Shown here: in pieces, positions 8,850 to 58,957 of the stretch
Position numbering within the stretch: the stretch's first letter is position 1
Layout of the letters: each line of letters opens with the position of its first letter
Assembly: GCA_002841695.1 (NCBI GenBank)
Contig: PHAN01000002.1
Location: 90,807 to 154,806 of the forward strand
Length of the DNA stretch: 64,000 nt
Direction: 5' to 3'
Origin: Elusimicrobia bacterium HGW-Elusimicrobia-1
Lineage (GTDB): Bacteria > Elusimicrobiota > Endomicrobiia > PHAN01
The notes under the pieces: generated by a model
Seen by the model: only the letters and a program-made list of their open reading frames with translations
Databases searched by the model: none
Told to the model about the DNA's origin: nothing
Made by a program: the position numbers and the translations under genes

Positions 8850-8906
8850 TGTAGGGGGCTTTATGTTCGTAACAAATTTACGTATTTACGCCCTGTAGTG
8901 TAGGGG

Positions 8907-9080
8907 CTTGTCCCCGTAGGCAAAAGGACTTGTCCCCGTAGGCAAAAGGACTTGTCTCCGTAGGCAAAAGGACTTGTCTCCGTAGGCAAAAGGGCTTGTC
9001 CCCGTAGGCAAAAGGGCTTGTCCCCGTAGGCAAAAGGACTTGTCTCCGTAGACAAAAGGGCTTGTCCCCGTAGACAAAAA
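8907..9080. repeat. Tandem repeat, 8 copies of a 22-bp unit (cttgtccccgtaggcaaaagga), ending at the RAYT start codon
   Basis: Eight head-to-tail units with few substitutions, no spacers; first unit overlaps REP-like gtagtgtaggggcttgtcccc. Confidence 0.85.
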
Positions 9081-9538
9081 TGGAACCACCAAAAAAAATC
9101 CGGCTGGAAAAAGAACTATATTCACAACCCGGAAGAATATATTTTGTTACTGTTAATACAAATTTTAAAAAAGGTTTTTTTATAGAGGACAACTTTAATC
9201 GCGAAATTATACAGTGTTTATTGACGGAGAGAAATAACAGATATAGTATTTTCGTATATTGTTTGATGCCTGACCATATTCATTTTTTAATTTCAACAAA
9301 TGCTGAAAATTATTCAATTACTGATTTTGTGAATAGATTTAAAGGATTGACAACAAGAATTGGTTGGAAATACGGTGTTGAAAAAGTTCTATGGCAAAGA
9401 AGATTTTACGATCATATATTAAGAAAGCAAGAAGATGCTAAAAAAATTGCGGAGTATATAGTTAGCAATCCTGTAAGAAAAGGTTTGGTTAAAAATTGGA
9501 AAGAATATCCATATTGTGGGTATATAGATGAATTTTAA
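9080..9538 (+). CDS. REP-associated tyrosine transposase (IS200/IS605 TnpA-like, HUH Y1 family)
   Basis: 152 aa; HUH motif in CLMPDHIHFLIS; conserved C-terminal tyrosine region AEYIVSNPVRKGLV; codon usage AT-rich relative to neighbours. Confidence 0.8.
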   Translation: MEPPKKIRLEKELYSQPGRIYFVTVNTNFKKGFFIEDNFNREIIQCLLTERNNRYSIFVYCLMPDHIHFLISTNAENYSITDFVNRFKGLTTRIGWKYGVEKVLWQRRFYDHILRKQEDAKKIAEYIVSNPVRKGLVKNWKEYPYCGYIDEF

Positions 9539-12215
9539 ATTACGCCCGTGTAGTGTAGGGATTTATGCCCGTAACAAATTTGCGTATTTACGCCCACAAG
9601 GGGCTACATTGCATACGTATTTACGCCCGCAAGGGGCTACACTACTGTTATTATTTATTTGCAATTTGCTTTATGCTCTTGAAATCGGAACTCCTGCGGG
9701 TGAGACGGGCGGCTTTGCGACGCAGCAGAAACATTTTTACGGCGACTATCTTTCGTCGGGCTCGCCTTCGGACTCCGTTTGGAGTTCGTCGGCGGCGATG
9801 ACACGCGAGGCGCTCGCCGACGGCACGACGATATACTTCGCGGACATTCCGGTAACGGCGGGCAACACCTTTTACTACTATTTTAAAACTCAATCGTCGG
9901 GCGAGCAAAAAACGCCGGTATACAGAACTATCTACGTCAGCAGTTCGAATCCCGGCGAAATTATCGTCGACGGAACGGCGTATCCGGCGGCGGGTCTCGT
10001 TGCGGCGGCTACGGTCTGGCACAACTTCTCGGACGCTCCGCCGCCTCCGGCCAATCTCACTTCTTTCTGGTCAGCCGCCAACGACTTCGTATCTCTTGAA
10101 TGGGACAACCCGCTTTTCGACGGAACCGCTGTTTTCGATCTTACGGGCGGAGGCGGTTATGAGATATGGCGCTCAAGCGTATCGTTTTCCGACGGTATGG
10201 CCGTGATATCTTCCGTCACGGCGATTTTAAGCCGCATGAGTTTTCCTGATTCGTCCGTCGAGGCGGGCGCGACTTATTATTACCGCGTCCGCGCCTACGA
10301 CGCGTATCTTCCGCCAATGCTTTCGTCTCCCGCGCAAACTTCGCCCGCATCGAAAAGAAATTACGTCACGGTTGCCCTCGAGGTCGACGTATTCGCGCTA
10401 TCGGGAGTAACCGGGGTTTCCGTTATCGGAGATTTCACCTCGCCGCCGTTTTACAAAGGCCGTCTGAGTATGGATTACGCCGGCGGCGGCAAATGGCGGC
10501 TCGAACACGCCGACGCTTCGCTTTACTCCGGAGCGCTCATCAAATACAAATATCTCGTCAACGGCGAACTTTATGAACCCGATCTGCCGCCTGCGCTCGG
10601 AGGGCCGTACAGAAATGTCGCGATAAAGGATGAGGGTTCGCGCAGAATGACTATTAAAGACGTCTGGTCGGTCTGGACTCCGACGGGAACGCCGTCGAAC
10701 CTGCCGCGGTTTATGACGGCTTTTTCCGCCGAGCCGTCCGCCGGCGCCGTCAAAATCACATGGGACTGCGACCCCTTTTCGACGGGCACTCTTCTGGGTT
10801 ACGCACTTGAGCGCTCGTCGTTCGCCGCCGGCGGTTATTCCGTAATATCTTCGCCGGATATCCTGGGCCCCGCGACATTCTACTACTCGGACGTCCTCGC
10901 CGACGGCTCGACGGCTTTCTACAGGATCGCCGCCGTATCCTCGTCGGGACAATGGTCGGAGTTCTCCGATGCCGTAAAGGCCAATCCTCCGTCCGTCGGG
11001 GAATCTCTGCCGCGATACAATCCCGCCGCCCAAGAGGTTTTCGCGGCGGGCGATTTTATTTGCGATATCGGTAATCTGACGGGTGAAGTCATACTTGCGT
11101 GGAATGCCGCGTCTCATGACGCGGCCTACGGCGCGGCGAGCGCATACATTGTCAAATACGCGACATTCCCGATAATCGGCGCCGATTCTTTTCATCGCGC
11201 AAAGACCGCCGGCGCGGCGCGCGGTTTGCCGTTGGGCGCGACGGGGCGTCTGACGACTTTGAACCTCGGCGGGGACTGCCCGGGTTTTTACTTTGCGGTC
11301 TGCGCGGTCTACGGCTCGTGGCACGTCGTGGGATTTTCAACTTCCGTCGTGGCGGTAGCCCCCAAGGCCTTCGACGCCAAGGATGGCGGCCTCGTCGTCA
11401 AAACGTTGCGTTTCGCGGGATCCTCGCCGGAGGCGCCGAGCGTGGCGGCGATGGAGTTTCCGCCGGGTGCGCTTCAACAGGGCGAATATCTCGGAGTCAT
11501 AAAAAATCTCGGGGAATTACGGCTCGACGGATCGGTCGCGGCCAAGATAGACGCGGCCAATTCACTCGCCTCGCGTGATGCCAGATTCGGCTATGTCGCG
11601 GATAACGAGAACCTTGCGTCGTCGAGCGTTTTCGCTTTCGATCTTTACGATTCGGCGAAAAACGATTACTTTAATCCCGTCGCCGGCAGAAGAGCGCGCA
11701 AAGACATAGTCGTCTCGCTGTCTTACGCAGGGCTGTCCATTGTGCCGGAGGAGTTGAAAGTCGCGCGCCTCAACGAAAAAAACGATTTCTGGCGGATACT
11801 GAAAGATATCAAACCCGATATAGACCGCGACGCCAAGCTCATAAAGTTCAAAACTAAGGAACTCTCGGTCTACGCACTCTTTCGCGCGCCGGCTCCCGCC
11901 GCCGATCTTTCGAACGTAGCGGTTTATCCGAACCCCTTCAAGCCGCACGACGGCTTACGCGAAACGGGCGACTATTCGACGGGAATCAGATTCACCAACC
12001 TCACACGGAACGCGGATATCAGGATTTATAATATAGCCGGCGAATTGGTCAGATACAAAGGGCTTGAAGCCGACGAGATCGGAGAGTGCCGCTGGGACGC
12101 CATGAACGACGACGGTGAACGCGTCGCAAGCGGCGTTTACATTTTCATTGCGAAAGATGAAAGCGTCAAGGTCGGCAAAAACCATTTCACAGGAAAAGTG
12201 GGAATTGTAAGATAA
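9528..12215 (+). CDS. Large FN3-containing surface protein with C-terminal FlgD-Ig/T9SS-like sorting domain (start codon uncertain; N-terminus encoded by REP sequence)
   Basis: 895-aa ORF; FN3 signature ATYYYRVRAYD; C-terminus AVYPNPFKP...IRIYNIAGELVRY...WDAMNDDGERVASGVYIFIAKD...GKVGIVR. Confidence 0.7.
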   Translation: MNFKLRPCSVGIYARNKFAYLRPQGATLHTYLRPQGATLLLLFICNLLYALEIGTPAGETGGFATQQKHFYGDYLSSGSPSDSVWSSSAAMTREALADGTTIYFADIPVTAGNTFYYYFKTQSSGEQKTPVYRTIYVSSSNPGEIIVDGTAYPAAGLVAAATVWHNFSDAPPPPANLTSFWSAANDFVSLEWDNPLFDGTAVFDLTGGGGYEIWRSSVSFSDGMAVISSVTAILSRMSFPDSSVEAGATYYYRVRAYDAYLPPMLSSPAQTSPASKRNYVTVALEVDVFALSGVTGVSVIGDFTSPPFYKGRLSMDYAGGGKWRLEHADASLYSGALIKYKYLVNGELYEPDLPPALGGPYRNVAIKDEGSRRMTIKDVWSVWTPTGTPSNLPRFMTAFSAEPSAGAVKITWDCDPFSTGTLLGYALERSSFAAGGYSVISSPDILGPATFYYSDVLADGSTAFYRIAAVSSSGQWSEFSDAVKANPPSVGESLPRYNPAAQEVFAAGDFICDIGNLTGEVILAWNAASHDAAYGAASAYIVKYATFPIIGADSFHRAKTAGAARGLPLGATGRLTTLNLGGDCPGFYFAVCAVYGSWHVVGFSTSVVAVAPKAFDAKDGGLVVKTLRFAGSSPEAPSVAAMEFPPGALQQGEYLGVIKNLGELRLDGSVAAKIDAANSLASRDARFGYVADNENLASSSVFAFDLYDSAKNDYFNPVAGRRARKDIVVSLSYAGLSIVPEELKVARLNEKNDFWRILKDIKPDIDRDAKLIKFKTKELSVYALFRAPAPAADLSNVAVYPNPFKPHDGLRETGDYSTGIRFTNLTRNADIRIYNIAGELVRYKGLEADEIGECRWDAMNDDGERVASGVYIFIAKDESVKVGKNHFTGKVGIVR

Positions 12216-12257
12216 AGTGGTCAGTGGATAGTGGTTAGTAAATAAAACGGATAATAT

Positions 12258-13250
12258 ATGAGAAAATTGTGTCTTTCGACTAGTGTTTCGACGGCAACTC
12301 GCGGACGAGGACGGCCCCTGCGACGGATTGCCCTTGTCCTTGCCTTTACTATCCACTATACACTGACCACTAACCACTCTCTACACGCCGCCGGCACGAC
12401 ATCCGCGACTTTTCTTAAACTCGGTGTCGGGGCGAGACCGGTGGGGATGGCCTCGGCGTTCGCAGGCGTGGCCGACGACGTCAACTCCGTCGCATGGAAC
12501 CCTGCGGGGCTCGCCTCAGTCGACGCGAAAGAATTTTCGTTTATGCATCTTGAACATTTTCAGGACGTGCGCTACGATTCGCTGTGCTATGCTCATCCTA
12601 TGAAAAAAACGGTCGTCGCATTCGGCTTTGGCTATCTGTATACCGACGAGATAACAAGGACTTTCATAGACGACGATGTTTATGCGGGTTTTCGCGCGCA
12701 GGGAGATTACCGGCTCCAGGATAGGACGTTTTTTGTTGCGGCGGCAAGACGAATCTCCGATGATAAGGCCGTCGGAGCGCTCGTCAGGTGGCTTTCGGAG
12801 AGGATAGAAGATAATGAAGCGACGGGGCTCGCCGCCGACGTCGGATATCTTCATCTCGTGACGGACCGTCTCGCGTTCGGTTTGTCCGTCCAGAATATCG
12901 GCGGGACGATAAGATTCATCGCGGCCGACGAAATGCTGCCGCTGACTTTTCGCGCGGGCTTCGGATATGACGTTGTCGCCGGAAAACTCAAACTCGCGCT
13001 CGACTTCGTCAAGCCCGTCGACTATCAACTTTCGATCAATCTCGGCGCCGAGTACAGGGCGTTTGACGCGCTCGCCGTCAGAGGCGGATGGAGCTTCAAA
13101 GATTTGTTCTACGACGACCGGCTTAACGGAACATCCGGCGCGGCTCTGGGGATGGGGTTTTCTTTTCACAATTATTCTCTTGACTACGCTTTCGCGCCTT
13201 ATGGAGAGCTCGGTTATTCTCACAGAATATCGTTCGGGGGAAAGTTTTGA
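12258..13250 (+). CDS. Beta-barrel outer-membrane protein, PorV/PorQ- or PorP/SprF-like
   Basis: N-terminal motif LKLGVGARPVGMASAFAGVADDVNSVAWNPAGLA; alternating beta-strand-like pattern; C-terminal ...ISFGGKF (terminal Phe). Confidence 0.6.
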   Translation: MRKLCLSTSVSTATRGRGRPLRRIALVLAFTIHYTLTTNHSLHAAGTTSATFLKLGVGARPVGMASAFAGVADDVNSVAWNPAGLASVDAKEFSFMHLEHFQDVRYDSLCYAHPMKKTVVAFGFGYLYTDEITRTFIDDDVYAGFRAQGDYRLQDRTFFVAAARRISDDKAVGALVRWLSERIEDNEATGLAADVGYLHLVTDRLAFGLSVQNIGGTIRFIAADEMLPLTFRAGFGYDVVAGKLKLALDFVKPVDYQLSINLGAEYRAFDALAVRGGWSFKDLFYDDRLNGTSGAALGMGFSFHNYSLDYAFAPYGELGYSHRISFGGKF

Positions 13251-13254
13251 AAAA

Positions 13255-13425
13255 GCAGGGTTTAGAAAGACAGGGTTTAGGGCATAGGGTCTAGGGTTTA
13301 GTAAAATGAATAAAAAACAGAGTATAAAAAAGACAGGGTTTAGGGTTCAGGGTTTAGGGGTTAGGTTTTTTTTCTTTTTTCTTTTTTCTATTTTCTATCC
13401 CCTAACCCATAGACCCTATACCCTG
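13255..13425. repeat. Leader palindrome P3 built from GGGTTTAGGG-type units; contains start codon and signal-peptide coding region of 13306..15414
   Basis: cagggtttagggcatagggtctagggtttag ... cagggtttagggttcagggtttaggggttagg ... ctatcccctaacccatagaccctataccctg; near-identical copy at 22629-22772. Confidence 0.75.
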
Positions 13426-15414
13426 CTTTATGCTACAACCCCCCACACAATTGCTATCGACGGCAACATCGCCGAATGGCGCAAAGACGAGTTGATTTAC
13501 GACGACTCCTGGAACGACTCTCCGTGGGGCGCGCAAAATGAAATCCACCGATTGTACGCCACATGGGACGACTCGGCTTTGTACCTTGGAGTATCGGGCG
13601 TTCAGAAGGACGGCAACAACCTTATCGTCTACATAGACACATCCCCGCTCGACGGAATCGCGGACGCCTCCCTTCTGAAAGATCCGGGTAATCCCTCGGG
13701 GATGTGGTGGTGGCGCAGAGGGAATAAATTCGCCCACGGCTTCAGACCGGATTTTCAGTGGCATCTTTACGAGATGAAACTGGATCCCGCGGATGGCCAC
13801 GGATTTTTCCGGCTCTATCCCGACGATACGACCGCGAATCTCAACGGCTCCGTCGCGCAGAAGGCCTCCGGCGGGGGCGCGGGCAATATCGGTTACGCCG
13901 AGATAAAGATACCGTGGCAGATTTTATTCGGCGCGGCATCTTTCCCGTCGGGAGAGGAAATCAGAATCGCGGCGGCTGTCACGGGCGGTATGGATACGCG
14001 AGGCACGCTCGATTCTTCCGACGATCTTTTCGGCTCGGCGCGCGACACGATACCCGACCAAAAGGCGGTTTTCCCCGAAGTATGGCACGATTCTTCTACG
14101 ATAGACACGTGGCTCGCTCTGAATCTTTCGGGAACCTCCGGCGACCGGTCGCCGGTGCCGCGCTCGCTCGTCTTAACTCCGCAAAGTCCGTTCGATGCGA
14201 AGGTTTCCTGGCAGACGCGCGGGATCATCGAAAGCAATCTCGACGAATACCGGCTGTATTACGCCCAAGACGGAACCGACGGGCGTTACGTCCGCGCGGC
14301 ATCGACGGAGACGTCCGCCGCGATAGAAGGCCTCGTCGCGGGTGCGACCTATCATTTTTTTCTGAGGGCGGTATATTCGGGCGAGGGGGAAGGCGGTTGT
14401 TCTGAAACGTTGGTTTCGCGGCTGCTGCGCCCTTCGCTCGCGCATTCGGCGCAAAGTGTATTTTGCTTTCCCGGTAAAATCCTCGATATTGAAGTCGAAT
14501 CCTCCGCCGCGCCGTCGGCGGTTGCGTTGCGCTATTTGTTTGACTCTGAAAATGTCTGGCGCACGTCGGCGATGAACATCGCCGGATCCAAGGCCTCATA
14601 CGCTCTTTGGCTGCCTTCAATCCCGGCCACACTGAAATATTATTTCGAAATAACGGACTCGGCCGGCACTCATCTTCTGCCCGCCTCGGCGCCGGCCTTC
14701 TCGTATGCCGTAAAGATAGAGTCGCGCGGTTCGGCGTACGCGCCGCTCTCGACGCAAACTTCGACGCTCGATTTCGGGGGAGGAGTCCTGATGGAAATAC
14801 CGCCGGACGGGCTCTCGACCGCGACGACCATCTATTTCGAATATTCATCGTCGAACGGCGATCTTTACGGCGACGGCGGACTCAGAGCGCTCGCGTATTA
14901 CGATTTTTACGCGCTTGATAGAAGCGGCAGCCGCGTCGGAGTGGTTTTCGAAAAGCCCGCGTTGATTAAGCTCAGATATTTCGACGACGACATCGCCGGC
15001 GTATCCGAATATGAGCTTTCCGTCGGGCGCATAGCCGGCGCAAGAAACGTGGCGCTCAAAGGAACGGTTTCCGCGGCCGAAAATAAAATATCTTTCGAGA
15101 CGTCCCATTTTTCCCGCTTTGCGATTTTTTCAGGAGAGACGGCCGTCTCGCCGATTGCCGGGCCGCTTAAAAAAGTCGTGCGGCCCACATTTAATCCGTC
15201 TCTGGGCGAAGTCGTGGAGTTCGACTGCGAGACGCCGTCGAAGATAGAAATATTCGATATGCGCGGTCGCCTAATCCGGACTTTTGACGGGAACTTCTGG
15301 GACGGCCGCGATTCGCTCGGCTCCAAAACTGCGCCCGGCGTATATCTTTATCGTCTCAGTACGCCCGAGCCGGGAAGAAAGAATATTTACGGCAGTTGTG
15401 TGGTAATCAGGTAA
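13306..15414 (+). CDS. Secreted surface protein with N-terminal CBM9/DOMON-like domain and C-terminal FlgD-Ig/T9SS-like domain
   Basis: 702 aa; N-terminal TIAIDGNIAEW...LYATWDDSALYLGVSGV; C-terminus RPTFNPSLGEVVEF...IEIFDMRGRLIRTF...WDGRDSLGSKTAPGVYLYRL...CVVIR. Confidence 0.7.
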   Translation: MNKKQSIKKTGFRVQGLGVRFFFFFLFSIFYPLTHRPYTLLYATTPHTIAIDGNIAEWRKDELIYDDSWNDSPWGAQNEIHRLYATWDDSALYLGVSGVQKDGNNLIVYIDTSPLDGIADASLLKDPGNPSGMWWWRRGNKFAHGFRPDFQWHLYEMKLDPADGHGFFRLYPDDTTANLNGSVAQKASGGGAGNIGYAEIKIPWQILFGAASFPSGEEIRIAAAVTGGMDTRGTLDSSDDLFGSARDTIPDQKAVFPEVWHDSSTIDTWLALNLSGTSGDRSPVPRSLVLTPQSPFDAKVSWQTRGIIESNLDEYRLYYAQDGTDGRYVRAASTETSAAIEGLVAGATYHFFLRAVYSGEGEGGCSETLVSRLLRPSLAHSAQSVFCFPGKILDIEVESSAAPSAVALRYLFDSENVWRTSAMNIAGSKASYALWLPSIPATLKYYFEITDSAGTHLLPASAPAFSYAVKIESRGSAYAPLSTQTSTLDFGGGVLMEIPPDGLSTATTIYFEYSSSNGDLYGDGGLRALAYYDFYALDRSGSRVGVVFEKPALIKLRYFDDDIAGVSEYELSVGRIAGARNVALKGTVSAAENKISFETSHFSRFAIFSGETAVSPIAGPLKKVVRPTFNPSLGEVVEFDCETPSKIEIFDMRGRLIRTFDGNFWDGRDSLGSKTAPGVYLYRLSTPEPGRKNIYGSCVVIR

Positions 15415-22628: not shown

Positions 22629-22772
22629 TTAGGGTCTAGGGTTTAGTAAAATGAATAAAAATATAGAAAAGACAGGGTTTAGAAAGGCAGGGTTTAGGGT
22701 TCAGGGTTTAGGGGTTAGGATTTTTGTTTTAATTTTTTTCTATACCCTAACCCCTAAACCCCATGCCCTGCT
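22629..22772. repeat. Leader palindrome P3 (second copy), overlapping start of 22651..23760
   Basis: gttagggtctagggtttagtaaaATG...cagggtttagggttcagggtttaggggttagg...ctataccctaacccctaaaccccatgccctg. Confidence 0.75.
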
Positions 22773-23760
22773 TTTCTCCGCGCCGCGTCACACCATTACC
22801 GTCGACGGCGATTTATCCGAGTGGGCGTCCGACGAAACAAGAGTCGCCGATTCCGCCGACTCCGTATGGGACCCGGGCGCCGGCAAAAACGAGATAAAAA
22901 ATCTCCGCGTCACGTGGGATGCCGAGGCGCTTTACGTGGGCGTCGAGGGAATGGCGACGGACAAAGGTATCCTGTTATATCTCGACAGCGGGCGCGGAGC
23001 GGGTTATTCCGATTTGCGCGAAATAAAAACGTGGAACCGCCGCGTGAGCTTCGAAAACTTTGCGCCCGATTTCTTCTACGGCGCGTGGGACGGCTCCGAC
23101 GGCAATTTTTACAGGTTGAGTTCTTCGTGGAGCGCCGAGAACGTAAGTTCAAAGTGTTCGCTGAAAAACTCTAAAACTTCGGCCGCGGCGGGGTGGGAGA
23201 TGAAGATTCCTTTCGACCTTCTTTATTCGCGCGGGAACGCCGTCGATACCGGGGCGCGCATAAAGATATTCGCCTCCCTTGCCACCGGCGACATAGGTTC
23301 GGCCGCGTCCGGAGATTACGGCTATCTCGGCGGTGACTGCGCGCCGGACAACGAATTGACCGGACTCGGCGACGCCCTGATATCAAATTACGCGCAAGTC
23401 GTCGTCGATTCCGACGGCGACGGCCTGCCCGACGACGCTTTTGCGCGCGCTGCGCTTTCCTTCAGAGAGGTGTCTCTTTCGGAGGTTAAGTTTGCGCCCG
23501 CGCTTCACTCCTTGACGATTTTGCGCGTCGAGGTCACAAAAGAATCTTCGGTCTCGGCGGAAATCTACGGCCTCGACGGAAAAAAAATCAGGACGCTTTC
23601 GGCACAGACCTCCGCCCAAAATTTTGTCCTGAGTTTTTCGTGGGACGGCCGGGACGATTCGGGCGCCGATGTCGCCGGCGGCGTTTACATAATCAATCTG
23701 CGCGCGTCTTCGCTCGACGAAAGCGCGCGTCTTAATAAGGCCGTCGTTGTCATAAGGTGA
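22651..23760 (+). CDS. Secreted protein with CBM9/DOMON-like N-terminal domain and C-terminal FlgD-Ig/T9SS-like domain
   Basis: N-terminal HTITVDGDLSEW...LRVTWDAEALYVGVEG (homologous to 13306 and 40565 N-termini); C-terminus SAEIYGLDGKKIRTL...WDGRDDSGADVAGGVYIINL...VVVIR. Confidence 0.7.
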   Translation: MNKNIEKTGFRKAGFRVQGLGVRIFVLIFFYTLTPKPHALLFSAPRHTITVDGDLSEWASDETRVADSADSVWDPGAGKNEIKNLRVTWDAEALYVGVEGMATDKGILLYLDSGRGAGYSDLREIKTWNRRVSFENFAPDFFYGAWDGSDGNFYRLSSSWSAENVSSKCSLKNSKTSAAAGWEMKIPFDLLYSRGNAVDTGARIKIFASLATGDIGSAASGDYGYLGGDCAPDNELTGLGDALISNYAQVVVDSDGDGLPDDAFARAALSFREVSLSEVKFAPALHSLTILRVEVTKESSVSAEIYGLDGKKIRTLSAQTSAQNFVLSFSWDGRDDSGADVAGGVYIINLRASSLDESARLNKAVVVIR

Positions 23761-46500: not shown

Positions 46501-47803
46501 TACCTATCGCGGGGCTGACAGTACCCTTGTCGTCAACTACGGAACGACGTTTGACCCGCGTACCTCCCGCGATGCCATATTCCGCGTGCGTCACTCCACG
46601 GTGGTGACCGGCGGACCAAAAACAATTACGGATTTGGCCGCCGCGACTTCACAGGACGCCGAAGGCGCGGTAGACCTTGACTGGACGTACCCCGGAATTT
46701 GCGGTCACGTGGATTTGCCCATAGGCAGCCGCTACTACATACAGCATTCCACGCATCTGGACGCGCCGTTTAACTGGAATGTGGACAATGCTCAGACGGT
46801 AATCTCCACCGGACCGGTTCTTGTGGGGGAACATCAGTTCTACACCAAGATGTCCTTGGACGAAGGCAACACTTATTATTTCACCGTCTGGTACTGGCAT
46901 TCTGATTTTAACGTCACATCTCTTGCCTCCAACGTCGCGACGTCGTGGGCGTCTCTTATAGCGCCCGCGGCCGTAACGAACCTCACCGCGCTTCCCGCTT
47001 TGCGCGGACGTTCCATCGATCTGGCCTGGACGGCTCCCGGCGACAACGTAATGACCGGCGACATAACAGGCGGCGCGTACCGTCTGAAATATTCCACTTA
47101 TGTCGACGGAGGCGATTCGTTCTGGAACGGCGGCGACTGGACCGACCGCACTTATAAGTATGAGATGATATGGTCGACGGATACCTCGCCCGGTCAGGAT
47201 GAGGCGCTCAACATAACCGCGCTTTCGCCCGGCACGACTTATTATTTCCGGCTTTGGACCCGCGACCGCTTCGAAGACAACTGGTCGAACATTTCAAACG
47301 GGGCCACATCGTGGGCGCAGGTGGTAAATCTTTCCGTCTACGTTCTTGATTCGTCCACTTACAATTTCGGAGCCGTGCCCACTCAAATATCGACCGTGTC
47401 GCTGAACGGAATAATCGTCCGCAACGACGGCAACGTAAATGCGTCCTATTTGTTGCGCATCGCCACCGGCACAGTGCCTCCGGCCAACACTATCTGGGAT
47501 ACATCCACGACTATCGGCGCCAACAGATTCGTGTTAAAAACAATGTTCAAAAACGCCCAGCCGCTCGACGGAGATTTCGGCGCGGCCGCGGGAGACGACG
47601 TGCTCACGCTTGAAGATATTTACGCCACCGGTGTCAACTTTTCCGACGGCACTCACGAAGGCCGCTACATAGAGCCGTTTTTGGCGGCTCCGCTTTTGTC
47701 CGACACGACTTTATGGTTCCGTCTCTCCACGCCGCTTTCCACATCGACCACCGAATATCAGACCATACCGGTGGTAATTACAAGCGAGGAGACGTACCCG
47801 TAA
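40565..47803 (+). CDS. Giant (2412 aa) secreted multidomain surface protein: CBM9/DOMON-like N-terminal domain, FN3 domains, probable beta-propeller repeats
   Basis: Signal peptide MMVKRIFAAIGVWFFLTLCVLRPAFA; N-terminal TITIDAALADWQSNE...FYFTWDASNFYFAY; FN3 signatures TTYWFAVCAYKD, GQYYWRVKARDRGG, TYYFRMWTRDEN, TYYFRLWTRDRF; repeated LYAIRGG / YAIRGGG segments. Confidence 0.8.
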   Translation: MMVKRIFAAIGVWFFLTLCVLRPAFATTNNTITIDAALADWQSNEALGTSFGQFYFTWDASNFYFAYNRGGTFTADPDVVWIYISTVAPTSTAGTFTSVDWTGTHTLPFRAGYVYLFRPNAEYKTYRNWTGSAWSGDWAGSATTSQNYGSGIVEIKIPRADIGNPSSIRVTMYITNGSNNYVFGTTPRENPNGATGRLMGLSWYYPNCSSTGVFPNLIRYRYPGVVIADVSPNAGAAGNDYVTLYNPNDEALYLSNLQSHHGLPTGLVLRFRTYNGATGTNKTLTVVSTNTISSRGFSLLASGTPPKTADITFAAGLDTSDDGVVIAYSNTTTFGTDTWTLTDLFGWGGQTVALEGSAPANPGTADSFQRKAWSTTASSASMRLDGEDTYAGHFMDTHNNSSDFVTLISSYISNNSSDPREGFLGQCWHIPDNTSDLGGISMRNPLTYIYLNTPTTFYVGNYFQGTGNPGDMSGGTLYYKAKTEPSWSSVSFAYDSTSGNNKYWRALLNNSYTAGTTVQYYISVAYADSHDTTLLYYSGGQSRRCYETYIATNTPSEFIVQADAAPDPITPTLSRADEMGAKIYVTWAAQGGMDGYKIYRSSVSAITNGNRGDASHPLDGTATPSAAESYTTSALLPNTTYWFAVCAYKDAVEGDVGSAVAIRTARISIDGSASDWATSVESPWVNESTTTLASGSGTVPYYEWSWRDKAWEQRTDSAQDDRNFDLRNFRVAADEEYIYFYTKYDNITDKDFYHFAVAIDTGGATGLNWLGDDSNSDTNGGTAMGLGGEYVGALKAAAILAFRYISTAGTDFRIHMYKNGGSGWDTPALTGAGNTACWLTTGDGGWMEAKVRRSDIGAAGIKTLKFSAAVFENLLGLIGDVDSTKYYAPDALDAMSIARISAASTYNDSQWGMNSWDEDISDSDADFWAQAQIDASGLKINQPPSAPSLSLPADGAGVDISTPAFSWSDNGDPDSGDAVTSYMIEISTSANFPTLVQCRVNVAGTSWTVPQGVLDQGQYYWRVKARDRGGAASVSSASRSFIVDTSPPDKITNLSALPGDSSSRINLSWTAPGDDGSVGNITGGKYRVKWSTSAVSDWDSGTWTDYVNKYSLEFSTDATPSHTHGLTITGLTAGASCLPSGATYYFRMWTRDENANNWSDISVGATQYSPGSPVGHAHGDRETFTALTSGGAYGSGTNIVYAKTTACGRLFLIRGASNLFYEYDIPNDLWNSKATLPAAAGTGSAMVWVSTGTEAGQSWLYAIRGGAQDHFYRYNIAEDYWQTMANLPDAVAGGAAMVWTGGADIFVSSPAAGGPFWRYNIPNNRWNNVADGGDPADYGVAFGLGGGLTWDGTYVYGLRGGTLKTFKRYSPSGDAWTDLTGAPENVGAGGSLLYTGGNSIYAIRGGGNTDLWHYDIETSSWVVLPNLPSPVGTNTGNRLAYHSDNGALDHLYIWRGATANDLWCFRRDITAPSAIGDLTASVVDGSCVAIRLEWTAPYGDGTENGLTETSQFWIQYSDMDVGWSRANAQVKVTAGPVAAGAPCVYDISVPHWGVSYYFKIWTGDKVKNWSSSSNSGGPISVTTTKTLSGKITNSETGQPIQGVGVGLSGFRNGRTFTDAGGNYSFTVPVCRQYIVMPSSAALHFTTATASGIDSSYPDRYEFSSFPNDRSDLDFVGHPTYGNLYYSTDTLTTTDIVGTTKKMSIRFTANDTRPYNRVYTYNSTAAGNDSYVFELRGDDGDGYPGILLSSSTANIYKNDGWHYATGAWSLTKGTTYHMVIYSTYTAATNYRIRKSAPLSFNRPTDAEPDFAANVLDYGFDDNPDFWMVRNFTPIYYFHYAAPPYYQEGNPFGVISSGAYYQVKGSTCIGQIFTMEKSSVSAKAFHFWVKRSAVQPEDGLYWFLLGPNDSSNVLSSGLLASPEAVATEFNWHISEQMVECPAPLLKGSTYWIILKSTGSTSGYYEFATLNHGATETYRDAITYRGADSTLVVNYGTTFDPRTSRDAIFRVRHSTVVTGGPKTITDLAAATSQDAEGAVDLDWTYPGICGHVDLPIGSRYYIQHSTHLDAPFNWNVDNAQTVISTGPVLVGEHQFYTKMSLDEGNTYYFTVWYWHSDFNVTSLASNVATSWASLIAPAAVTNLTALPALRGRSIDLAWTAPGDNVMTGDITGGAYRLKYSTYVDGGDSFWNGGDWTDRTYKYEMIWSTDTSPGQDEALNITALSPGTTYYFRLWTRDRFEDNWSNISNGATSWAQVVNLSVYVLDSSTYNFGAVPTQISTVSLNGIIVRNDGNVNASYLLRIATGTVPPANTIWDTSTTIGANRFVLKTMFKNAQPLDGDFGAAAGDDVLTLEDIYATGVNFSDGTHEGRYIEPFLAAPLLSDTTLWFRLSTPLSTSTTEYQTIPVVITSEETYP

Positions 47804-47912
47804 AGGGCAGTGGTTAGTGGCGAGTGGTTAGTGGATAGAAAGGGCAGTGGTTAGTTTTTTGTTTTTACTATCCACTATTCACTAACCACTCGCCACTATA
47901 CACTAGCCACTT
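47804..47912. repeat. P2 hairpin (agtggttagtggatag arms around T-rich loop), terminator-like, downstream of giant gene
   Basis: gggcagtggttagtggcgagtggttagtggatagaaagggcagtggttagttttttgtttttactatccactattcactaaccactcgccactata. Confidence 0.7.
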
Positions 47913-47932
47913 ACTTTTGATTGGAGGAAAAA

Positions 47933-48883
47933 ATGAAAAAATTCTCATCGACAGGGTCATTGTTTATTCTCTTGTTTATCGTTTTTACTATCCACTACCC
48001 ACTAACCACTAACCACTGTCTTTACGCCGCCGGTCTCTCGTCTCCCAACGCCTCGATGTATCTGGGTAACCTTAAAATCGGCCAGACGTATTCACTCAGA
48101 CAACTGCTGGGCTACCCATTCAAAGCCACCTACAAAGGACGCTCAATGGCCGACCTGTCCATAAGCGTGATCGCGCTGTCCACCGCGACATCCGACGGAT
48201 ACGAACCCATCCCGTCCAACGACTGGATAGAAATCGAACGCTCGCATTTCTCTCTCGATCCGGGCCAGACCGCCGAAACCGACATCCTCATAAAAATCCC
48301 CGACGACACCGCGCATCTTGACAAAAAATATATCGTCATAATACAGCCACAGTCGGGCGCGCCGCGCGCCAGCGGAGCGGGCATTGTTTTCGGCACGGCG
48401 CTCAGGTGCCAGTTGCGCCTCGACATAGCCGCGCTTCCTCCCACGCCGGACGAAATCCGGCAGTTACGGCGCCTTCGGCACGGACAGTCGGTCGGTGTGG
48501 TTGTGTCTCCGGAAAGAATTTTCGTAAACGAAATCGAGGCGGGAAAAAAGATAGACGTCAAAAAAACTTTCGGCGATGTTATAAAAATAGTGAACTCGTC
48601 GGATTTCGACGTAGAGGCCGTCATAGAGTCCGCCGACCCCGCCAAGTTCGGGATGTTCGCCCCGTCGGGTTATGAAACCGCCCCCGATCACAAATGGCTT
48701 GTGCCCGCAAAAAGAAAAATCAAGATTCAGAAAAACCGCATAGCCGAGGCGCCGGTTACCATAAACATTCCTTCCGGCCCGGAACACGAGGGGAAAAGCT
48801 ACTATTTCGCCATTGCCGTAACCGTCAAATCGCCCATAAGAGAAGTCAATCATCTGGTCAGATTCTTTGTGGATATGAAGTAG
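47933..48883 (+). CDS. Secreted protein A1 of duplicated two-gene cassette (unknown function)
   Basis: ATG 47933 with GGAGGA 5 nt upstream (track start 47921 is TTG); leader SLFILLFIVFTIHYPLTTNHCLYAA; paralogous to 51140..52039 (NLKIG, GYEPxP, HLxKKY, ISAPSGY shared). Confidence 0.7.
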   Translation: MKKFSSTGSLFILLFIVFTIHYPLTTNHCLYAAGLSSPNASMYLGNLKIGQTYSLRQLLGYPFKATYKGRSMADLSISVIALSTATSDGYEPIPSNDWIEIERSHFSLDPGQTAETDILIKIPDDTAHLDKKYIVIIQPQSGAPRASGAGIVFGTALRCQLRLDIAALPPTPDEIRQLRRLRHGQSVGVVVSPERIFVNEIEAGKKIDVKKTFGDVIKIVNSSDFDVEAVIESADPAKFGMFAPSGYETAPDHKWLVPAKRKIKIQKNRIAEAPVTINIPSGPEHEGKSYYFAIAVTVKSPIREVNHLVRFFVDMK

Positions 48884-48925
48884 CAGTGGTTAGTGAAATA
48901 AAAAAAAGTGGTTAGTGGATAGTAA
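48884..48925. repeat. P2 arm copy
   Basis: gcagtggttagtgaaataaaaaaaagtggttagtggatagt. Confidence 0.6.
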
Positions 48926-48948
48926 AAATGAAAAAGGGGGGGAATAGT

Positions 48949-49326
48949 ATGATAGGAGTTAGGAGTTATAAAGATTTAATAATCTGGCGAAAAAGTATGG
49001 AACTTGTAAAAATTGTGTACAAAGCGACCAGTAGTTTCCCGCAAAAAGAATTATTCGGATTGACAAATCAGATGAGAAGGGCAGCCGTATCGATACCTTC
49101 AAATATAGCGGAAGGGCAGGCCAGAAACCATACGAAAGAATTTGTGCAGTTTCTGTATCAGGCGTTGGGCTCCCTGGCGGAACTTGATACACAGGCAATA
49201 ATAGCCAAGGAACTGGGTTATCTAAAAGCAGTGGATAGTGGTGAGTGGATAGAAAGACAAACTGCCGAACTTCAAAAGATGACACACGGCCTACTCAAAA
49301 AACTAACCGCTATAGACAGTGGATAG
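48949..49326 (+). CDS. Four-helix-bundle protein (family formerly called 23S rRNA intervening-sequence protein)
   Basis: SYKDLIIWRKSMELVKIVYK...FGLTNQMRRAAVSIPSNIAEGQAR...ELDTQAIIAKELGYL; AT-rich; start at ATG 48949 after GGGGGG SD preferred over 48928. Confidence 0.8.
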   Translation: MIGVRSYKDLIIWRKSMELVKIVYKATSSFPQKELFGLTNQMRRAAVSIPSNIAEGQARNHTKEFVQFLYQALGSLAELDTQAIIAKELGYLKAVDSGEWIERQTAELQKMTHGLLKKLTAIDSG

Positions 49327-49410
49327 TGGCGAGTGGTTAGTGGATAGAAAGGGCAGTGGTTAGTTTTTTGTTTTTACTATCCACTATTCACTAACCACTA
49401 ACCACTGCCC
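49318..49410. repeat. P2 hairpin, terminator-like
   Basis: gggcagtggttagttttttgtttttactatccactattcactaaccactaaccactgccc (13-bp perfect outer stem). Confidence 0.7.
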
Positions 49411-49668
49411 CTAAAAAACCCTTGACTTTATATAATTATTTTGCTATATACTGTATATCAAACAGGAAGCATACTTCTTAATTTAACATCTTGAATAAAA
49501 TGAGACGTGGGTTGGCCCGCCGAAGAAGGGCAGGAGGTGAAAAAAGGTCGTATGATTCAATCTTTAAAAAGCAATAGAGAAAAAGAGCTCGCGGCGTCGG
49601 TGGTGACGGAGTGCGCACCGTCATCCGTGACAGGCGCGGGCAAAAATCAAAAGGAAGAGGGAGGATTT

Positions 49669-50349: not shown

Positions 50350-50630
50350 AGATTAGTCACAGCAGTTTAAGGTCAGCGTAAGTTGGTCTTTGGTATCCCG
50401 CCGTAGTCCGGCGGGACTCCATAGGTTAACAAAATTACTCCCCGTAGAGGTAGACTTCCGTGTCCGCCATCATGGACGCGAATGTTTTCGGGTGTCATTT
50501 TCCCGAGACGTTTGCGACCCCGGAATTATCGGTGGCGCCGATGAAGTCGGCGCCCCATCTGTTTAAAGATTATTTTGCCGTCGCGGCTATGCGCCCGACG
50601 GCTTTTGTTTTTTATAGCCGAATAAACGAT

Positions 50631-51000
50631 TTTGCCGGCGGATGCGGTTGTCTATTCTCTACGGGGAGAAAAAACATCACCCATTCGCCGGCCTTCTTTT
50701 TTGCGGAGCGGAGGTCTATCTCTACGGGGAGAAACGCCTGCCGCTCCGCTTACTATTTTGCAGAAACGCGTCGGGAAAATCCCCCTGTATCCCCCTTTAA
50801 AAAGGGGGAATATCGCACCTCCCCCTTTGGAAAAGGGGGACTGAGGGGGATTTCAAAAAACCATTTTGCCGGCGGACCGGAAGTTTGCCTCTACGGGGAG
50901 TGCATCACTACCGGTCCCGCCGGCTTACTTTTTTTTGCGGACGGACACGAACGTCGAACCTCTACGGGGAGGCAGTACGCATCGCCCGTCCGCATCTTTT
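50631..51000 (+). repeat. Array of four ~70-bp hairpin units with conserved loop motif CTCTACGGGGAG and covarying stems, interrupted by a P1 element (50775-50853)
   Basis: Loops at 50657, 50721, 50890, 50961; stems gccggcg/cgccggc, gcggagcgg/ccgctccgc, gccggcggaccgg/ccggtcccgccggc, gcggacgg/ccgtccgc; each unit followed by a T run; reverse-complement motif ctccccgtagag at 50438. Confidence 0.7.
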
Positions 51001-51056
51001 TCGGGGGGCGTACGAGCCGCCCCTTCAACTATCGGGGGCGGACACGGTTGTCTATT

Positions 51057-51090: not shown

Positions 51091-51139
51091 AAAAACACCG
51101 CCGCGTACCGCCCCCATATTTTCTTATCGGAGAAATATT

Positions 51140-52042: not shown

Positions 52043-52162
52043 AAAGTGGGTAGTGGATAGTGACGAGTGGTTATGGGTAGTGGATAGTGGCGAGTGGTTA
52101 GTGGATAGAAAGGGCAGTGGTTAGTTTTTTGTTTTTACTATCCACTAATCACTATCCACTCT
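52043..52162. repeat. P2 hairpin cluster, terminator-like
   Basis: agtgggtagtggatagtgacgagtggttatgggtagtggatagtggcgagtggttagtggatagaaagggcagtggttagttttttgtttttactatccactaatcactatccact. Confidence 0.7.
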
Positions 52163-52271
52163 CTTTAAAGGAGGCAGTATGAACGGTTTAAGTCGTTTCA
52201 AAGATGTCCCGCAAACGGTGCGGGAAACAAAATCAAGTCCCCCGACGGAAACGCGGGGACAGGGAGGCAGT

Positions 52272-56119: not shown

Positions 56120-56162
56120 AGATAAAGAAGTGAATAGTGATTAGTGGATAGTAAAAGAAAAA

Positions 56163-56274
56163 ACAAGAAGCAAGATAAACCGTCATTCTGAGCGAAGCGA
56201 AGAATCCTCGTCATCTTCCGGCGAAGAATCCTCGCCATACTCTAACAAGATCCTTCGCTTCGCTCAGGATGACA
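56163..56274. repeat. Palindromic element (gtcattctgagcgaagcgaag ... cttcgcttcgctcaggatgac)
   Basis: Near-identical copy at 58838-58957. Confidence 0.7.
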
Positions 56275-56436: not shown

Positions 56437-58074
56437 ATGAATACACTTATTAAAATCATCAAAAAATTTCCGCCGCCGTCGTCATTGTTTATTCTCTTGT
56501 TTATCGTTTTTACTATTCACTATTCACTATCCACTATTCACCCTCTTTACGCCGCATTCGAGGATATTTCCGTCGGCGGACGTCCCGCGGCTTTTTCCGG
56601 CGCGTATACAGCGGTCGAAGGCGACGCGTATTCCATCTACTACAATCCCGCGGCGCTTGCGGGTATGGCAAGGGCCGAGTTCGGCGCGCAATATTCCAAA
56701 CTTCATACGGGGCTTACGGACGGTTCGGAACTCTCCAACGCTTTTTTCGGCGTGGCGCAGCCGCTTAAATTCGGCTCGGCCGATTACGGCACAATCGGCG
56801 CGGGATGGATAAGATTCGACCTTGCGGAACTTTATCAGGAAAATACTATAATCTTGTCCTGGGCGCGTGACATTGTAAAGAACAAACTTTCCTTCGGATT
56901 CGGCGCCAAAATGCTCTCTATTACCTACGGCGAAAACGACTACACCAAAAACGCCTTCGACAACGAGGGCAACACGACCGGCGCGGCGGACCCGCTTTTC
57001 AACTATGGCTATATCAAATCCGCCGCCGACTTCGACGCCGGAATAAGATACGCTTTCGCCAAAAATTACGCCGTGGCCGCCGTCGCGCAGAATCTGGCGG
57101 GCGCAAATATATCGCTCGTCAACGACCCCAATGTCGCGCTGCCGCGTCGTTACCGTTTCGGCCTTGCTCACACCGGCAAGGCCTACGCGCTTTCGGCCGA
57201 TGTCGCGGGCGCTTCGGACTCTTCGGTAGTGCGCGGAATGGTCGGCGTCGAAAAAAGTTTCGACTTCGGTGGCGCCCTGAGGGCCGGGCTGGGAATGGGC
57301 ACCGACGGATGGGCCAATATCGCCGGCGGTTTCGGATTCAAAGCCGACGCCCTCAGCTTCGATTACGGCCTCGCATGGCCGTTGTCGGGCATAAAGAACA
57401 CTTCAGGCAGTCACAGGGTCTCGGTGAATTTCAAATTCGGGCCCGTTATGCGCCACCCCGAATCCGACTCGGAAACGCAGGTGCGCCTGGCGCAGGAAAT
57501 TACCGCCCGCAAAGAGTACGAGCAGAAATACAGGGTGTCCGAGATAGAACTCGCCCGCGCTAGAGAAGAGATAAGACAGCTCAAAAATCAGATAGAGGAA
57601 TTGCTCAAGCGTCCGTCGGCTCCCATACCGGCGCCAAGAGAAATCGCGTCGCCCAAGCCGACGGTTACGGAGACGCCCGCGGCCGTCAAACCCGGCGTAA
57701 CGCCGGCCGCGCCCGCTATGCCCACCGATATCGACGCTTTGAGAGCCGCTTATGCCAAAGAATTCAACCAGTATCAGCGCGACGCTTCCAAAATGGATAT
57801 TAAGCAGCGCATCGCGGCGGTTGACGTCATAGTCGCGCGTTATCAGGGCAAGATAAAGATAACCGAAGCCGTCGACGAACAGATGATACTCAGGAATGAA
57901 TTCGCCGCGCAGACCAAGTTCTATAACGACGCGCTTACTTACTACAAACGTCTCGTACGGCAGGGTATATCCGTCGAGGAGCGCAAGGACATACTCAATC
58001 GCATGATAACCAAGTACCAGGTGCTCGGCGTCGATGTAACTGTCGCCAAAGAGGAGCTTAAGACGGTAAAATAA
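56437..58074 (+). CDS. Beta-barrel OMP (PorV/PorQ- or PorP/SprF-like) with C-terminal coiled-coil/Pro-rich extension
   Basis: ATG 56437 after aaaggag (track start 56269 lies in repeat); leader SLFILLFIVFTIHYSLSTIHPLYAA; motif GRPAAFSGAYTAVEGDAYSIYYNPAALAG; C-terminal EIELARAREEIRQLKNQIEELLKRPSAPIPAP. Confidence 0.6.
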   Translation: MNTLIKIIKKFPPPSSLFILLFIVFTIHYSLSTIHPLYAAFEDISVGGRPAAFSGAYTAVEGDAYSIYYNPAALAGMARAEFGAQYSKLHTGLTDGSELSNAFFGVAQPLKFGSADYGTIGAGWIRFDLAELYQENTIILSWARDIVKNKLSFGFGAKMLSITYGENDYTKNAFDNEGNTTGAADPLFNYGYIKSAADFDAGIRYAFAKNYAVAAVAQNLAGANISLVNDPNVALPRRYRFGLAHTGKAYALSADVAGASDSSVVRGMVGVEKSFDFGGALRAGLGMGTDGWANIAGGFGFKADALSFDYGLAWPLSGIKNTSGSHRVSVNFKFGPVMRHPESDSETQVRLAQEITARKEYEQKYRVSEIELARAREEIRQLKNQIEELLKRPSAPIPAPREIASPKPTVTETPAAVKPGVTPAAPAMPTDIDALRAAYAKEFNQYQRDASKMDIKQRIAAVDVIVARYQGKIKITEAVDEQMILRNEFAAQTKFYNDALTYYKRLVRQGISVEERKDILNRMITKYQVLGVDVTVAKEELKTVK

Positions 58075-58705: not shown

Positions 58706-58957
58706 AAAGTGATTAGTGGCGAGTGGTTAGTGGTTAGTAAAAGAAAAAGCAAAATGTCATTCCCGCGCCGCGCCGTAGGCGATGCTCCGCAAATGCGGGG
58801 CTGTGGGAACGCGGAAATCCAGAGCAATTAAATAGAGTCAAGAAGCGAGAGTCAAGATAAATCGTCATTCTGAGCGCAGCGAAGAATCCCCGTCATATTC
58901 CGGCGGGGAATCCTCGCCATACTCTAAGAGGATCCTTCGCTTCGCTCAGGATGACAG
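58706..58957. repeat. Composite repeat: P2 arm, gtcattcccgcg palindrome, and gtcattctgagcg...cgctcaggatgaca palindrome
   Basis: agtgattagtggcgagtggttagtggttagt; gtcattcccgcgccg...ggaacgcggaaatccagag; gtcattctgagcgcagcgaagaatcc...ggatccttcgcttcgctcaggatgacag. Confidence 0.7.

Follow-up and report, generated by a model that had tools for sequence, protein, structure and literature searches.

Heptamer palindromes at gene junctions of an Elusimicrobiota secretion cluster and their probable reuse as signal-peptide coding sequence

The Rickettsia palindromic elements (RPEs) are short palindromic repeats found both in intergenic regions and in-frame in unrelated genes, to which they add a conserved peptide (PMC10969869). 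Intergenic heptamers near the end of the upstream open reading frame (ORF) have been described in Xanthomonas, Nostoc and Geobacter; they are positionally conserved, variable in length and sequence, and their function is unsettled (PMC4692102, PMC2700814). In Coxiella, the S23p ORF of the 23S rRNA intervening sequence (IVS) is preceded by tandem heptamers, the first of which is the site of RNase III cleavage (PMC4990558). Here, we analyze a stretch of 64,000 nucleotides (the window, to whose first letter all positions refer unless another locus is named) from contig PHAN01000002.1 of Elusimicrobia bacterium HGW-Elusimicrobia-1. In this window, palindromes made of 7-nt units adjoin stop codons, and one of their arms appears to be translated within the predicted signal peptide of the next gene. 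Our search of the literature found no report of palindromic repeats supplying signal peptides.

Heptamer arms at gene junctions and in predicted leaders

The region under study encodes a type IX secretion-like cluster; its products include PorV/FadL-like barrels as well as proteins with CHU_C or FlgD_ig domains at the C-terminus. Every named homologue of the window proteins bears the label Elusimicrobia, Elusimicrobiota or Endomicrobia, and the window sequence is contained in a metagenome contig of 249.7 kb (ENA ERZ27239242 k141_46455) and also in JGI 3300029821. The repeat is made of the unit AGTGGWT and its complement ACTAWCC. There are 21 matches to TTACTATCCACTA with at most 2 mismatches in the window, where 0.46 are expected, and 34 matches to CACTAACCACT with at most 1 mismatch, where 0.22 are expected. 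We counted 14 arrays of three or more units with an exact period of 7 nt (6 of the CACT type and 8 of the AGTG type; 3-6 units per array), against 0.005 per shuffle. They have the properties of heptameric simple sequence repeats of the short tandemly repeated repetitive (STRR) type, i.e., they are tandem, mostly intergenic, and present in dispersed copies. The AGTG-type (G-rich) arms always lie 5' of the CACT-type arms, the + strand being the coding strand at these junctions. The heptamer features and the associated leaders are the following:

47804..47914, + strand: complete heptamer hairpin, past the stop of a 2412-aa gene and 5' of the ribosome-binding site that serves the next one
52043..52163, + strand: complete heptamer hairpin; it follows a stop (52037-39) and precedes the ribosome-binding site (AAGGAGG) of gene 52179
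56126..56178, + strand: left arm, extended by purine-rich sequence and immediately past the stop of a 1013-aa gene
58706..58746, + strand: solitary left arm, after the stop at 58700-02; the next gene has no partner arm
12216..12242, + strand: left arm, beginning 1 nt past the stop of an 895-aa gene
47933..48031, + strand: predicted signal-peptide coding region of a 316-aa protein (MKKFSSTGSLFILLFIVFTIHYPLTTNHCLYAA); the second right arm, 47984-48020, encodes the c-region
56437..56556, + strand: predicted signal-peptide coding region of a FadL/PorV-like outer-membrane protein (MNTLIKIIKKFPPPSSLFILLFIVFTIHYSLSTIHPLYAA); right arm 56509-56540
12258..12392, + strand: predicted signal-peptide coding region of a PorV/UPF0164-like outer-membrane protein; right arm 12345-12381 encodes FTIHYTLTTNHSLHA

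The original prediction placed this repeat next to stop codons, and this holds at all the sites that it named. The left arms start 0-10 nt past the stops ending at 47803 (codon at 47801-03), 49326 (49324-26, inside the arm), 52039 (52037-39), 56119 (56117-19), 58702 (58700-02) and 12215 (12213-15). Three complete hairpins (47804-47914, 49318-49410 and 52043-52163) lie between the stop and the ribosome-binding site or promoter-like region of the next gene. The first of them consists of a left arm (47809-47841), an inner mini-arm (47843-47856), a T-rich loop and a right arm (47865-47914).

A complementary arm had also been proposed inside the 5' coding end of downstream genes. The right arm is indeed in-frame within the first 45 codons of three genes (12258, 47933 and 56437), where 47984-48020 reads FTIHYPLTTNHCLYAA, 56509-56540 reads FTIHYSLSTIHPLYAA and 12345-12381 reads FTIHYTLTTNHSLHAA. 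Sec-type signal peptides have a basic n-region, a hydrophobic h-region of about 7-15 residues and a polar c-region with small residues at -1 and -3. The leaders conform to this plan: they start with K/R, their h-region has a Kyte-Doolittle value of +3.2, and L-Y-A or L-H-A adjoins the shared mature sequence. When the parts of the hairpin are in-frame, their mean Kyte-Doolittle values are -0.8 for the left arm (basic), +2.7 to +3.6 for the loop (hydrophobic) and about 0 for the right arm (polar). The c-regions of the leaders end in LYA, LHA or FSA. Arm-bearing leaders span 33-45 residues, compared with 20-26 in the orthologues and in the in-window paralogue at 51140, whose leader is ordinary.

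Homologues of the 316-aa protein have an N-terminal signal peptide in 40 out of 40 cases, ending in ...[YF][AS][AG]-G[LI]S[ST]P (here and below, a hyphen marks the predicted cleavage site). Their conserved mature start, G[LI]S[ST]P..(M)YLGNLKIGQ, follows ...FTIHYPLTTNHCLYA in the window protein. In the PorV-like homologues, the leaders end in ...A-(A/G)GTTSATFLKLG, i.e., just before (A/G)GTTSATFLKLGVGAR. These alignments support the translation of the arm as the c-region of a predicted cleavable signal peptide. The leader had been predicted to be cleaved after LYAA/LHAA; the homologues support a predicted site after LYA/LHA, directly before the conserved mature N-terminus. True starts downstream of the arm would have left the leader untranslated, and we checked for them: no in-frame start codon occurs between the arm and the predicted cleavage site in the three arm-bearing window genes. 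Ribosome-binding sites precede the proposed ATGs (GGAGG at 47933, AAGGAG at 56437).

The leader is shared as DNA and not as part of homologous proteins. The 316-aa protein and the outer-membrane protein encoded at 56437 have BLASTP similarity only over residues 1-33 (73% identity), and their genes share 103 nt (56453-56555 in the latter) at 82% identity, including an identical block of 35 nt. Hence, as judged by these alignments, non-homologous genes are shown to share the leader, and the proposal that the common element is a DNA repeat is borne out by this leader-only similarity. The accompanying claim that the downstream proteins are not homologous stands for this pair, but not for the products of 12258 and 56437, which are distant relatives and both PorV/FadL-like barrels. 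When the leader copies are aligned to the intergenic ones, homology extends from the loop (GTTTTTACTATCCACTA) through the arm to the CTCTTTA flank. After CTCTTTA, the intergenic copy has AAGGAGG (ribosome-binding site), whereas the leaders have CGCCGCC (Tyr-Ala-Ala).

Leader replacement and occurrence in other genomes

We compared the window with a syntenic relative (Logan SRR4188643, loci L126 and L127) and with further relatives (L128, with P0003, and L129). The original prediction called for a comparison with orthologues lacking the repeat, and close orthologues do have unrelated or different leaders. The orthologue of 47933, P0012 (84% identity), has an unrelated ordinary leader, MKKMLLSFLTMLIAVAVASA, followed by an identical mature N-terminus; this leader has no arm and only a short degenerate hairpin lies upstream. 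The orthologue of 12258, P0051 (89% identity), has a different leader, whose DNA contains another heptamer pair (GGTAGAGGG / CCTTCTACC), and at this locus DNA identity with the relative is lost between the upstream stop and ACGCCGCCGGC. In both heptamer cases, the ~90% DNA identity of the flanks collapses exactly from the upstream stop to the codons of the predicted cleavage site. Relative to these genomes, the whole interval from stop to cleavage site is replaced, with inverted arms and in-frame coding, which differs from a simple insertion with duplicated flanks.

These comparisons show that the leader is replaceable and has been replaced, with breakpoints at the upstream stop and at the predicted cleavage site. 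By the same alignments, the leaders of 47933 and 12258 are repeat-derived and recently exchanged. The leader of 56437 is kept in the orthologues of L126 and L128/P0003, with four heptamer units in each and point substitutions only. Because it is present in both with the same four units, the leader of this barrel is, on this comparison, older than the exchanged ones. The hairpins themselves also vary between relatives: the one at the 52043 junction is present in the syntenic relative and built of different heptamers there, and the left arm of the 58706 junction is found in L126 and is absent from L128. Among three metagenome samples, L001 and L003 are identical to the window, and L002 differs only by scaffold N-gaps.

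Other repeats of the window also occupy the 5' coding ends of genes. They include a repetitive extragenic palindromic (REP) sequence with its REP-associated tyrosine transposase (RAYT), and hairpins made of the heptamer GGGTTTA:

8860..9677, + strand: RAYT gene and REP insertion (22-nt tandem array 8860-9079; Y1 transposase gene 9080-9538; REP copies 9540-9650)
13272..13434, + strand: GGGTTTA-type element, with an extra left arm (13272-13299) upstream of ATG 13306; the whole hairpin, 13335-13425, is translated as MNKKQSIKKTGFRVQGLGVRFFFFFLFSIFYPLTHRPYTLLYA
22630..22782, + strand: second hairpin of the GGGTTTA type, which encodes the leader of a paralogue (MNKNIEKTGFRKAGFRVQGLGVRIFVLIFFYTLTPKPHALLFSA)

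REP sequence had been placed at the 5' coding end of the 9528 gene, and we found it there. The RAYT gene at 9080-9538 (Pfam PF01797, 6.6e-11) is followed by REP copies that now serve as the 5' coding end of the 895-aa gene, as far as LLYA-LEIGTP, with its ribosome-binding site, start and leader. The orthologue of 9528 in L127 lacks the insertion, and its leader is ordinary (MKIQKAILVLLLAVFSPALVLA-LEIGTPSG). Identity breaks off a little before the upstream gene ends, the 3' end of this gene being replaced as well, and is regained at the cleavage-site codons. The array directly 5' of the RAYT gene has at least 8 tandem copies of a 22-nt unit (GGRCTTGTCYCCGTAGGCAAAA) at 8860-9079, which is unusual for REP. 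The heptamers do not belong to this REP/RAYT system, since the sole RAYT is flanked by the 22-nt tandem repeat and by TACGCCC...GGGGCTAC palindromes.

The GGGTTTA hairpins (P3) were found, as anticipated, at the 5' coding ends of 13306 and 22651, whose products are paralogues. They encode two complete leaders, and the frame of the gene includes the entire hairpin. No stop interrupts this frame between the ATG and the end of the hairpins, and the other two frames have 5-8 stops over the scanned interval (4 each after the ATG in 13306). The P3 unit (13272-13425, 22677-22775) is identical to the plant-type telomere repeat (TTTAGGG)n, probably by coincidence, and may produce misleading database matches.

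The use of heptamer arms in leaders recurs beyond the close relatives. L129 (GCA_041694835.1) is a more distant Elusimicrobiota metagenome-assembled genome (MAG), with orthologues ~60% identical and 44% G+C. It has five consecutive genes with leaders from pyrimidine-rich heptamer arrays and purine-rich arrays 5' of them; one such leader reads MKRFRNFPPFTIHYSLFAIRYL. At positions 4001, 5158 and 7369 of L129, frames are open from an ATG at the 5' edge of the purine array (MRGQRTEWQSTSAQ...) over ~75 codons to the leader. In these frames, the entire nested hairpin may be translated, which would give the protein a very long and charged N-terminal extension. At the orthologous junction, L127 carries another heptamer pair. 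An independent case is provided by a UBA5214 Elusimicrobia lipoprotein (L125, obtained by scanning a genome collection with GTTTTTACTATCCACTANNCACT, which gave two unrelated MAGs), where the leader MKKFLLSTIHYPLLTV...NGC reads the arm in a different frame. Metagenome contig L026 is another independent case of an arm in a leader (MKLKKIVLIIMFFTIHYSLFTSHSLAQQ). Other Elusimicrobiota, e.g., L131, have no arrays. The similarity could have been confined to a few loci and due to recent segmental duplication; this is contradicted by its recurrence with other heptamer families, at orthologous positions, and in two further genomes.

A scan of metagenomes with a 20-nt pattern (18 specified bases) gave at least 120 contigs from many environments, most of those listed having (AGTGNNN)n ... 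(NNNCACT)n hairpins. Such heptamer hairpins are present in many phyla. Among the metagenome matches listed, arms outside the clade usually lie upstream of the start codon, and there is no strong frame preference in the 121 matches listed. Four metagenome matches are chance matches to a coding motif of RmlA-like proteins (glucose-1-phosphate thymidylyltransferase). A crude check of orientation against flanking ORFs found long stop-free frames on both strands beside the hairpins of the metagenome loci.

The four-helix-bundle element and other repeats of the window

One of the heptamer stems of the window encloses a gene:

48884..48935, + strand: left heptamer arms of the four-helix-bundle element, pairing with 49365-49410
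48949..49326, + strand: gene of a four-helix-bundle protein (23S_rRNA_IVP / bAvd-like; Pfam PF05635, 8.5e-38), situated in the loop that the heptamer stem closes
49318..49410, + strand: complete heptamer hairpin, also the right boundary of the four-helix-bundle element

The stop of this gene (TAG) lies within a heptamer unit. Besides this stop-supplying array, a three-unit AGTGGAT array is found inside the ORF at 49230-49250, where it codes for AVDSGEWIE. In the predicted fold of 48875-49425 (-159.7 kcal/mol, z -5.65), 48884-48935 pairs with 49365-49410 around the ORF. The gene is absent from the syntenic relative L126.

We analyzed ten other PF05635 loci: eight from metagenomes, L124 (with a different heptamer), and one on a Nostoc edaphicum plasmid. 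In nine of the ten, the PF05635 gene is flanked on both sides by inverted heptamer arms; the exception, L035, has only a weak match. The arm-bracketed loci are window 48884-49410, L006, L012, L041, L054, L094, L104, L120, L124 and L133. In the eight PF05635 loci of the AGTG/CACT type, the G-rich arm precedes the gene and the C-rich arm comes after its stop codon. Two loci on plasmids of Nostoc PCC 7120 have the array on the 3' side only. The PF05635 gene lies between ordinary genes, apparently trpE and trpG in L006 (judging by the flanking sequence) and annotated ribonucleotide reductase subunit genes in Nostoc edaphicum. As in an IVS, terminal inverted repeats form a stem around a PF05635 ORF at 48884-49410. 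However, the element is located between two protein-coding genes and not in helix 9, 25 or 45 of 23S rRNA. We detected no rRNA or other Rfam family in the window at gathering thresholds, and a tRNA scan was also empty. The architecture of these loci suggests an IVS-like element that occurs outside rRNA and across phyla.

The genome is unusually rich in repeats, and the window holds at least 5 unrelated small families. A hairpin family, ATCCCCCTTT(A/T)AAAAGGGGGAT, is intergenic and often present as tandem pairs (6231-6271, 7636-7720, 39952-40027, 40381-40460, 50774-50850 and 58171-58264). Palindromes of the type GTCATTCTGAGCGAAGCGAAGAATCC...GGATCCTTCGCTTCGCTCAGGATGAC occur at 56182-56268, nested in the loop of the heptamer stem 5' of the 56437 gene, and again at 58868-58955, past 58746. 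The dispersed repeat GTCATTCCCGCGAAAGCGGGAATCCAGAG forms a 52-nt inverted pair 17 kb apart (15450-15501 and 32556-32607) and is also found at 58757-58825. In addition, the cluster contains an apparently non-coding stretch of 0.8-1 kb, at 50350-51140 in the window and at 11985-13004 in L126. This stretch is composed of loosely periodic units of 57-100 nt that start with TTTTGCCGNCGGA or finish with CTCTACGGGGAG. The latter unit end has 4 copies in the window stretch and ~7 in L126. A mechanical ORF of 227 aa (50460-51143, also called as a gene in L001) overlaps the periodic stretch and has no Pfam hit.

Possible explanations and comparison with known systems

We consider exaptation the probable explanation: heptamer palindromes at gene junctions would have overwritten the leaders of genes for secreted proteins, and the resulting cassettes would have been exchanged among genes. 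The AGTGGWT and GGGTTTA families (P2 and P3) are oriented palindromes of 7-nt units, in which the 5' arm is rich in purines or G, the loop in T and the 3' arm in pyrimidines. They belong to the widespread bacterial heptamer repeats of the STRR or IVS-like class, and accumulate at the gene junctions of this Elusimicrobiota lineage, between stops and ribosome-binding sites. When read in-frame, the G-rich arm gives a basic n-region, the T-rich loop a hydrophobic h-region, and the pyrimidine-rich arm with its CTCTTTAC flank a polar c-region ending in LYA. Little is required of a signal peptide beyond basic residues at its start, a hydrophobic core and small residues at the cleavage site. Given these few requirements, the 5' ends of secreted genes can presumably tolerate being overwritten by repeats. 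Recombination between the arms that they have in common may then have carried leaders from gene to gene. What remains of the complementarity to the upstream arm would form an RNA stem around the ribosome-binding site, either as a by-product or as a tuner of expression.

Several observations weigh against this explanation. The sequence read comprised ~64 kb of genome, i.e., the window, and loci from three relatives, which limits the census. Cleavage itself is a prediction from the alignment of homologues. We saw no target-site duplications, and the only nearby transposase belongs to another repeat. A full-library search with the leader profile gave a single further family member, the orthologue P0003, and the FTIHY leader is not widespread. 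The other 8 matches look like spurious ORFs that merely translate heptamer arrays, and a word-indexed protein search with a leader profile gave only 22 candidates, none of them useful. Finally, the persistence of hairpins across species and the greater stability of the sense strand described below could mean that the RNA structure itself is selected, which pure tolerated insertion does not predict.

This last point leads to a serious alternative, which is partly compatible with exaptation and overlaps it in part, although we regard it as considerably less probable. The selected function would be at the RNA level, with a stem in which the upstream cistron's 3' end pairs with the sequence encoding the leader of the next gene, and the peptide would be a constrained by-product. 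The stem could be an IVS-type RNase III processing site, a stabilizer of the upstream message, or a device coupling or insulating downstream translation. In the minimum-energy folds of 47790-48050 (-89.1 kcal/mol, z -7.4), 12200-12400 (-67.0 kcal/mol, z -4.0), 56110-56570 (-170.4 kcal/mol, z -13.2) and L126 17970-18340 (-112.1 kcal/mol, z -3.6), the upstream left arm pairs with the leader arm and encloses the ribosome-binding site and start codon. In the window, the leader arm of 47933 pairs with 47805-47841, the arm at 12216 with 12345 onwards, and that at 56126 with 56487-56540. For the orthologous loci of L127 and L129, the predicted folds are no more stable than those of shuffled sequences (z -0.3 and +1.3). 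The transcript-spanning hairpin of the original prediction is thus the predicted minimum-energy fold at the three window loci but is weak in these two relatives, and for this reason we consider it only plausible.

Folded alone, the hairpin at 47804 reaches -64.6 kcal/mol in sense (z -10.1) and -55.7 in antisense, and that at 52043 reaches -44.7 and -32.0, respectively. The hairpin at 49318-49410 has -47.6 kcal/mol (z -6.6), and the 13272 and 22630 elements have -45.4 kcal/mol (z -4.9) and -55.3 kcal/mol (z -5.7). The sense fold is more stable than the antisense one in five out of five hairpins, consistent with G-U pairs. A selected RNA would also account for hairpins kept at the same junctions in relatives despite their different heptamers, and for arms that enclose the four-helix-bundle gene as the RNase III-cut IVS stem encloses S23p (PMC4990558). 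Yet the pairing is weak or absent in L127 and L129, the arm at 58706 has no partner, the orthologue P0012 manages with a short degenerate upstream hairpin and no leader arm, and cutting inside the stem would destroy the downstream coding region. The repeat had also been likened to a terminator. This did not hold: no hairpin combines a stem with a U-tract, the loops are T-rich and 10-30 nt long, and a scan for terminator-like structures, i.e., intrinsic (Rho-independent) terminators, returned none of them.

A bolder view, which we consider doubtful as a whole, links these observations to the PF05635 loci. The heptamer hairpins would be cross-phylum IVS-like RNA elements with a four-helix-bundle (S23p/Avd-like) partner acting in trans. 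Here, they would have become modular 5' cassettes supplying the ribosome-binding site, the start and an n-h-c signal peptide, and the stem would be a selected device for processing or translational control, linking consecutive genes of the secretion cluster.

The remaining explanations are unlikely. The arrays could be contingency loci, in which slipped-strand gain or loss of 7-nt units shifts the frame and switches surface proteins, as in the NeuO heptanucleotide repeats. Heptanucleotide phase variation is known (PMC13001214), the unit is not a multiple of 3, the genes encode surface or secreted proteins of a type IX secretion-like cluster, and the number of IVS units differs between Coxiella strains (PMC4990558). 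However, contingency loci have identical units whose copy number varies between strains, whereas the units here are imperfect, with at most 2 identical neighbours. Moreover, the leader of the outer-membrane protein is constant at 4 units in three species, with point substitutions only, and the three metagenome samples are identical. These facts make phase variation very improbable. We give slightly less credit still to the idea that FTIHYxLxTxHxLYAA is a dedicated sorting motif read by a lineage-specific export or processing machine. The motif is conserved in the three window proteins and in the orthologues of the outer-membrane protein, and FTIHYSLFAIRYL recurs in L129. However, close orthologues and a paralogue lack it, it is the direct translation of a mostly non-coding repeat, other heptamer families yield different peptides at the same positions, and the profile search gave no further families. 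Least probable of all is an artefact of annotation, in which the genuine start codons would lie past the arm, or a local duplication affecting the 5' ends of genes. In its favour, the leaders have an unusual length (33-45 aa) and 13306 and 22651 are paralogous. Against it, there are no downstream in-frame starts, the mature N-termini align with the orthologues directly past the arm, ribosome-binding sites stand ahead of the proposed ATGs, and the similarity spans non-homologous genes over the leader only.

If exaptation is correct, it provides a route from selfish or structural repeat DNA to coding sequence, in which an oriented palindrome maps onto the n-h-c plan. In the form of DNA cassettes, export signals could arise anew, take the place of others and pass between unrelated genes, which would account for leaders that evolve far faster than the mature proteins in this lineage. 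It would also mean that similarity between leaders can pass for homology, and start codons at such junctions could be misassigned by gene callers. The over-represented heptamers of bacteria, the orphan "IVS protein" family and intercistronic hairpins would be tied together. The repeats are also relevant to metagenome binning, since they coincide with assembly breaks: the JGI scaffold L002 has an N gap inside the 47804 hairpin (around window position 47867), and the Logan contig L127 (7041-7076) terminates in a TTTTCTA heptamer array, at the start of the orthologue of 13306.

The heptamer palindromes share traits with several described systems. Like the REP sequences, they are extragenic palindromes after stops, a position from which REPs can stabilize the upstream mRNA, but they have no associated RAYT. 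Like the 23S rRNA IVS, the element at 48884-49410 is an inverted-repeat stem around a PF05635 gene; it differs in being in the intercistronic spacer of a protein operon, and most copies of the repeat are empty and have no ORF. The tandem 7-nt units, mostly intergenic and sometimes in inverted pairs, resemble the cyanobacterial STRR, the GGGAATC of Xanthomonas, the GGGGAYT of Nostoc and the heptanucleotide elements of Geobacter. However, signal-peptide coding is absent from the papers on these heptamers that we read, the G-quadruplex idea does not suit AGTGGWT units, and the host here is an Elusimicrobiota. Finally, like RPEs and intragenic miniature inverted-repeat transposable elements, the palindromes are both intergenic and in-frame within unrelated coding genes. 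They have a heptamer architecture in place of a Rickettsia-type consensus, and the hallmarks of transposition were not seen. In addition, while RPEs are located in the body of cytoplasmic enzymes, the palindromes described here are confined to the N-terminal leader predicted to be cleaved, which they replace.

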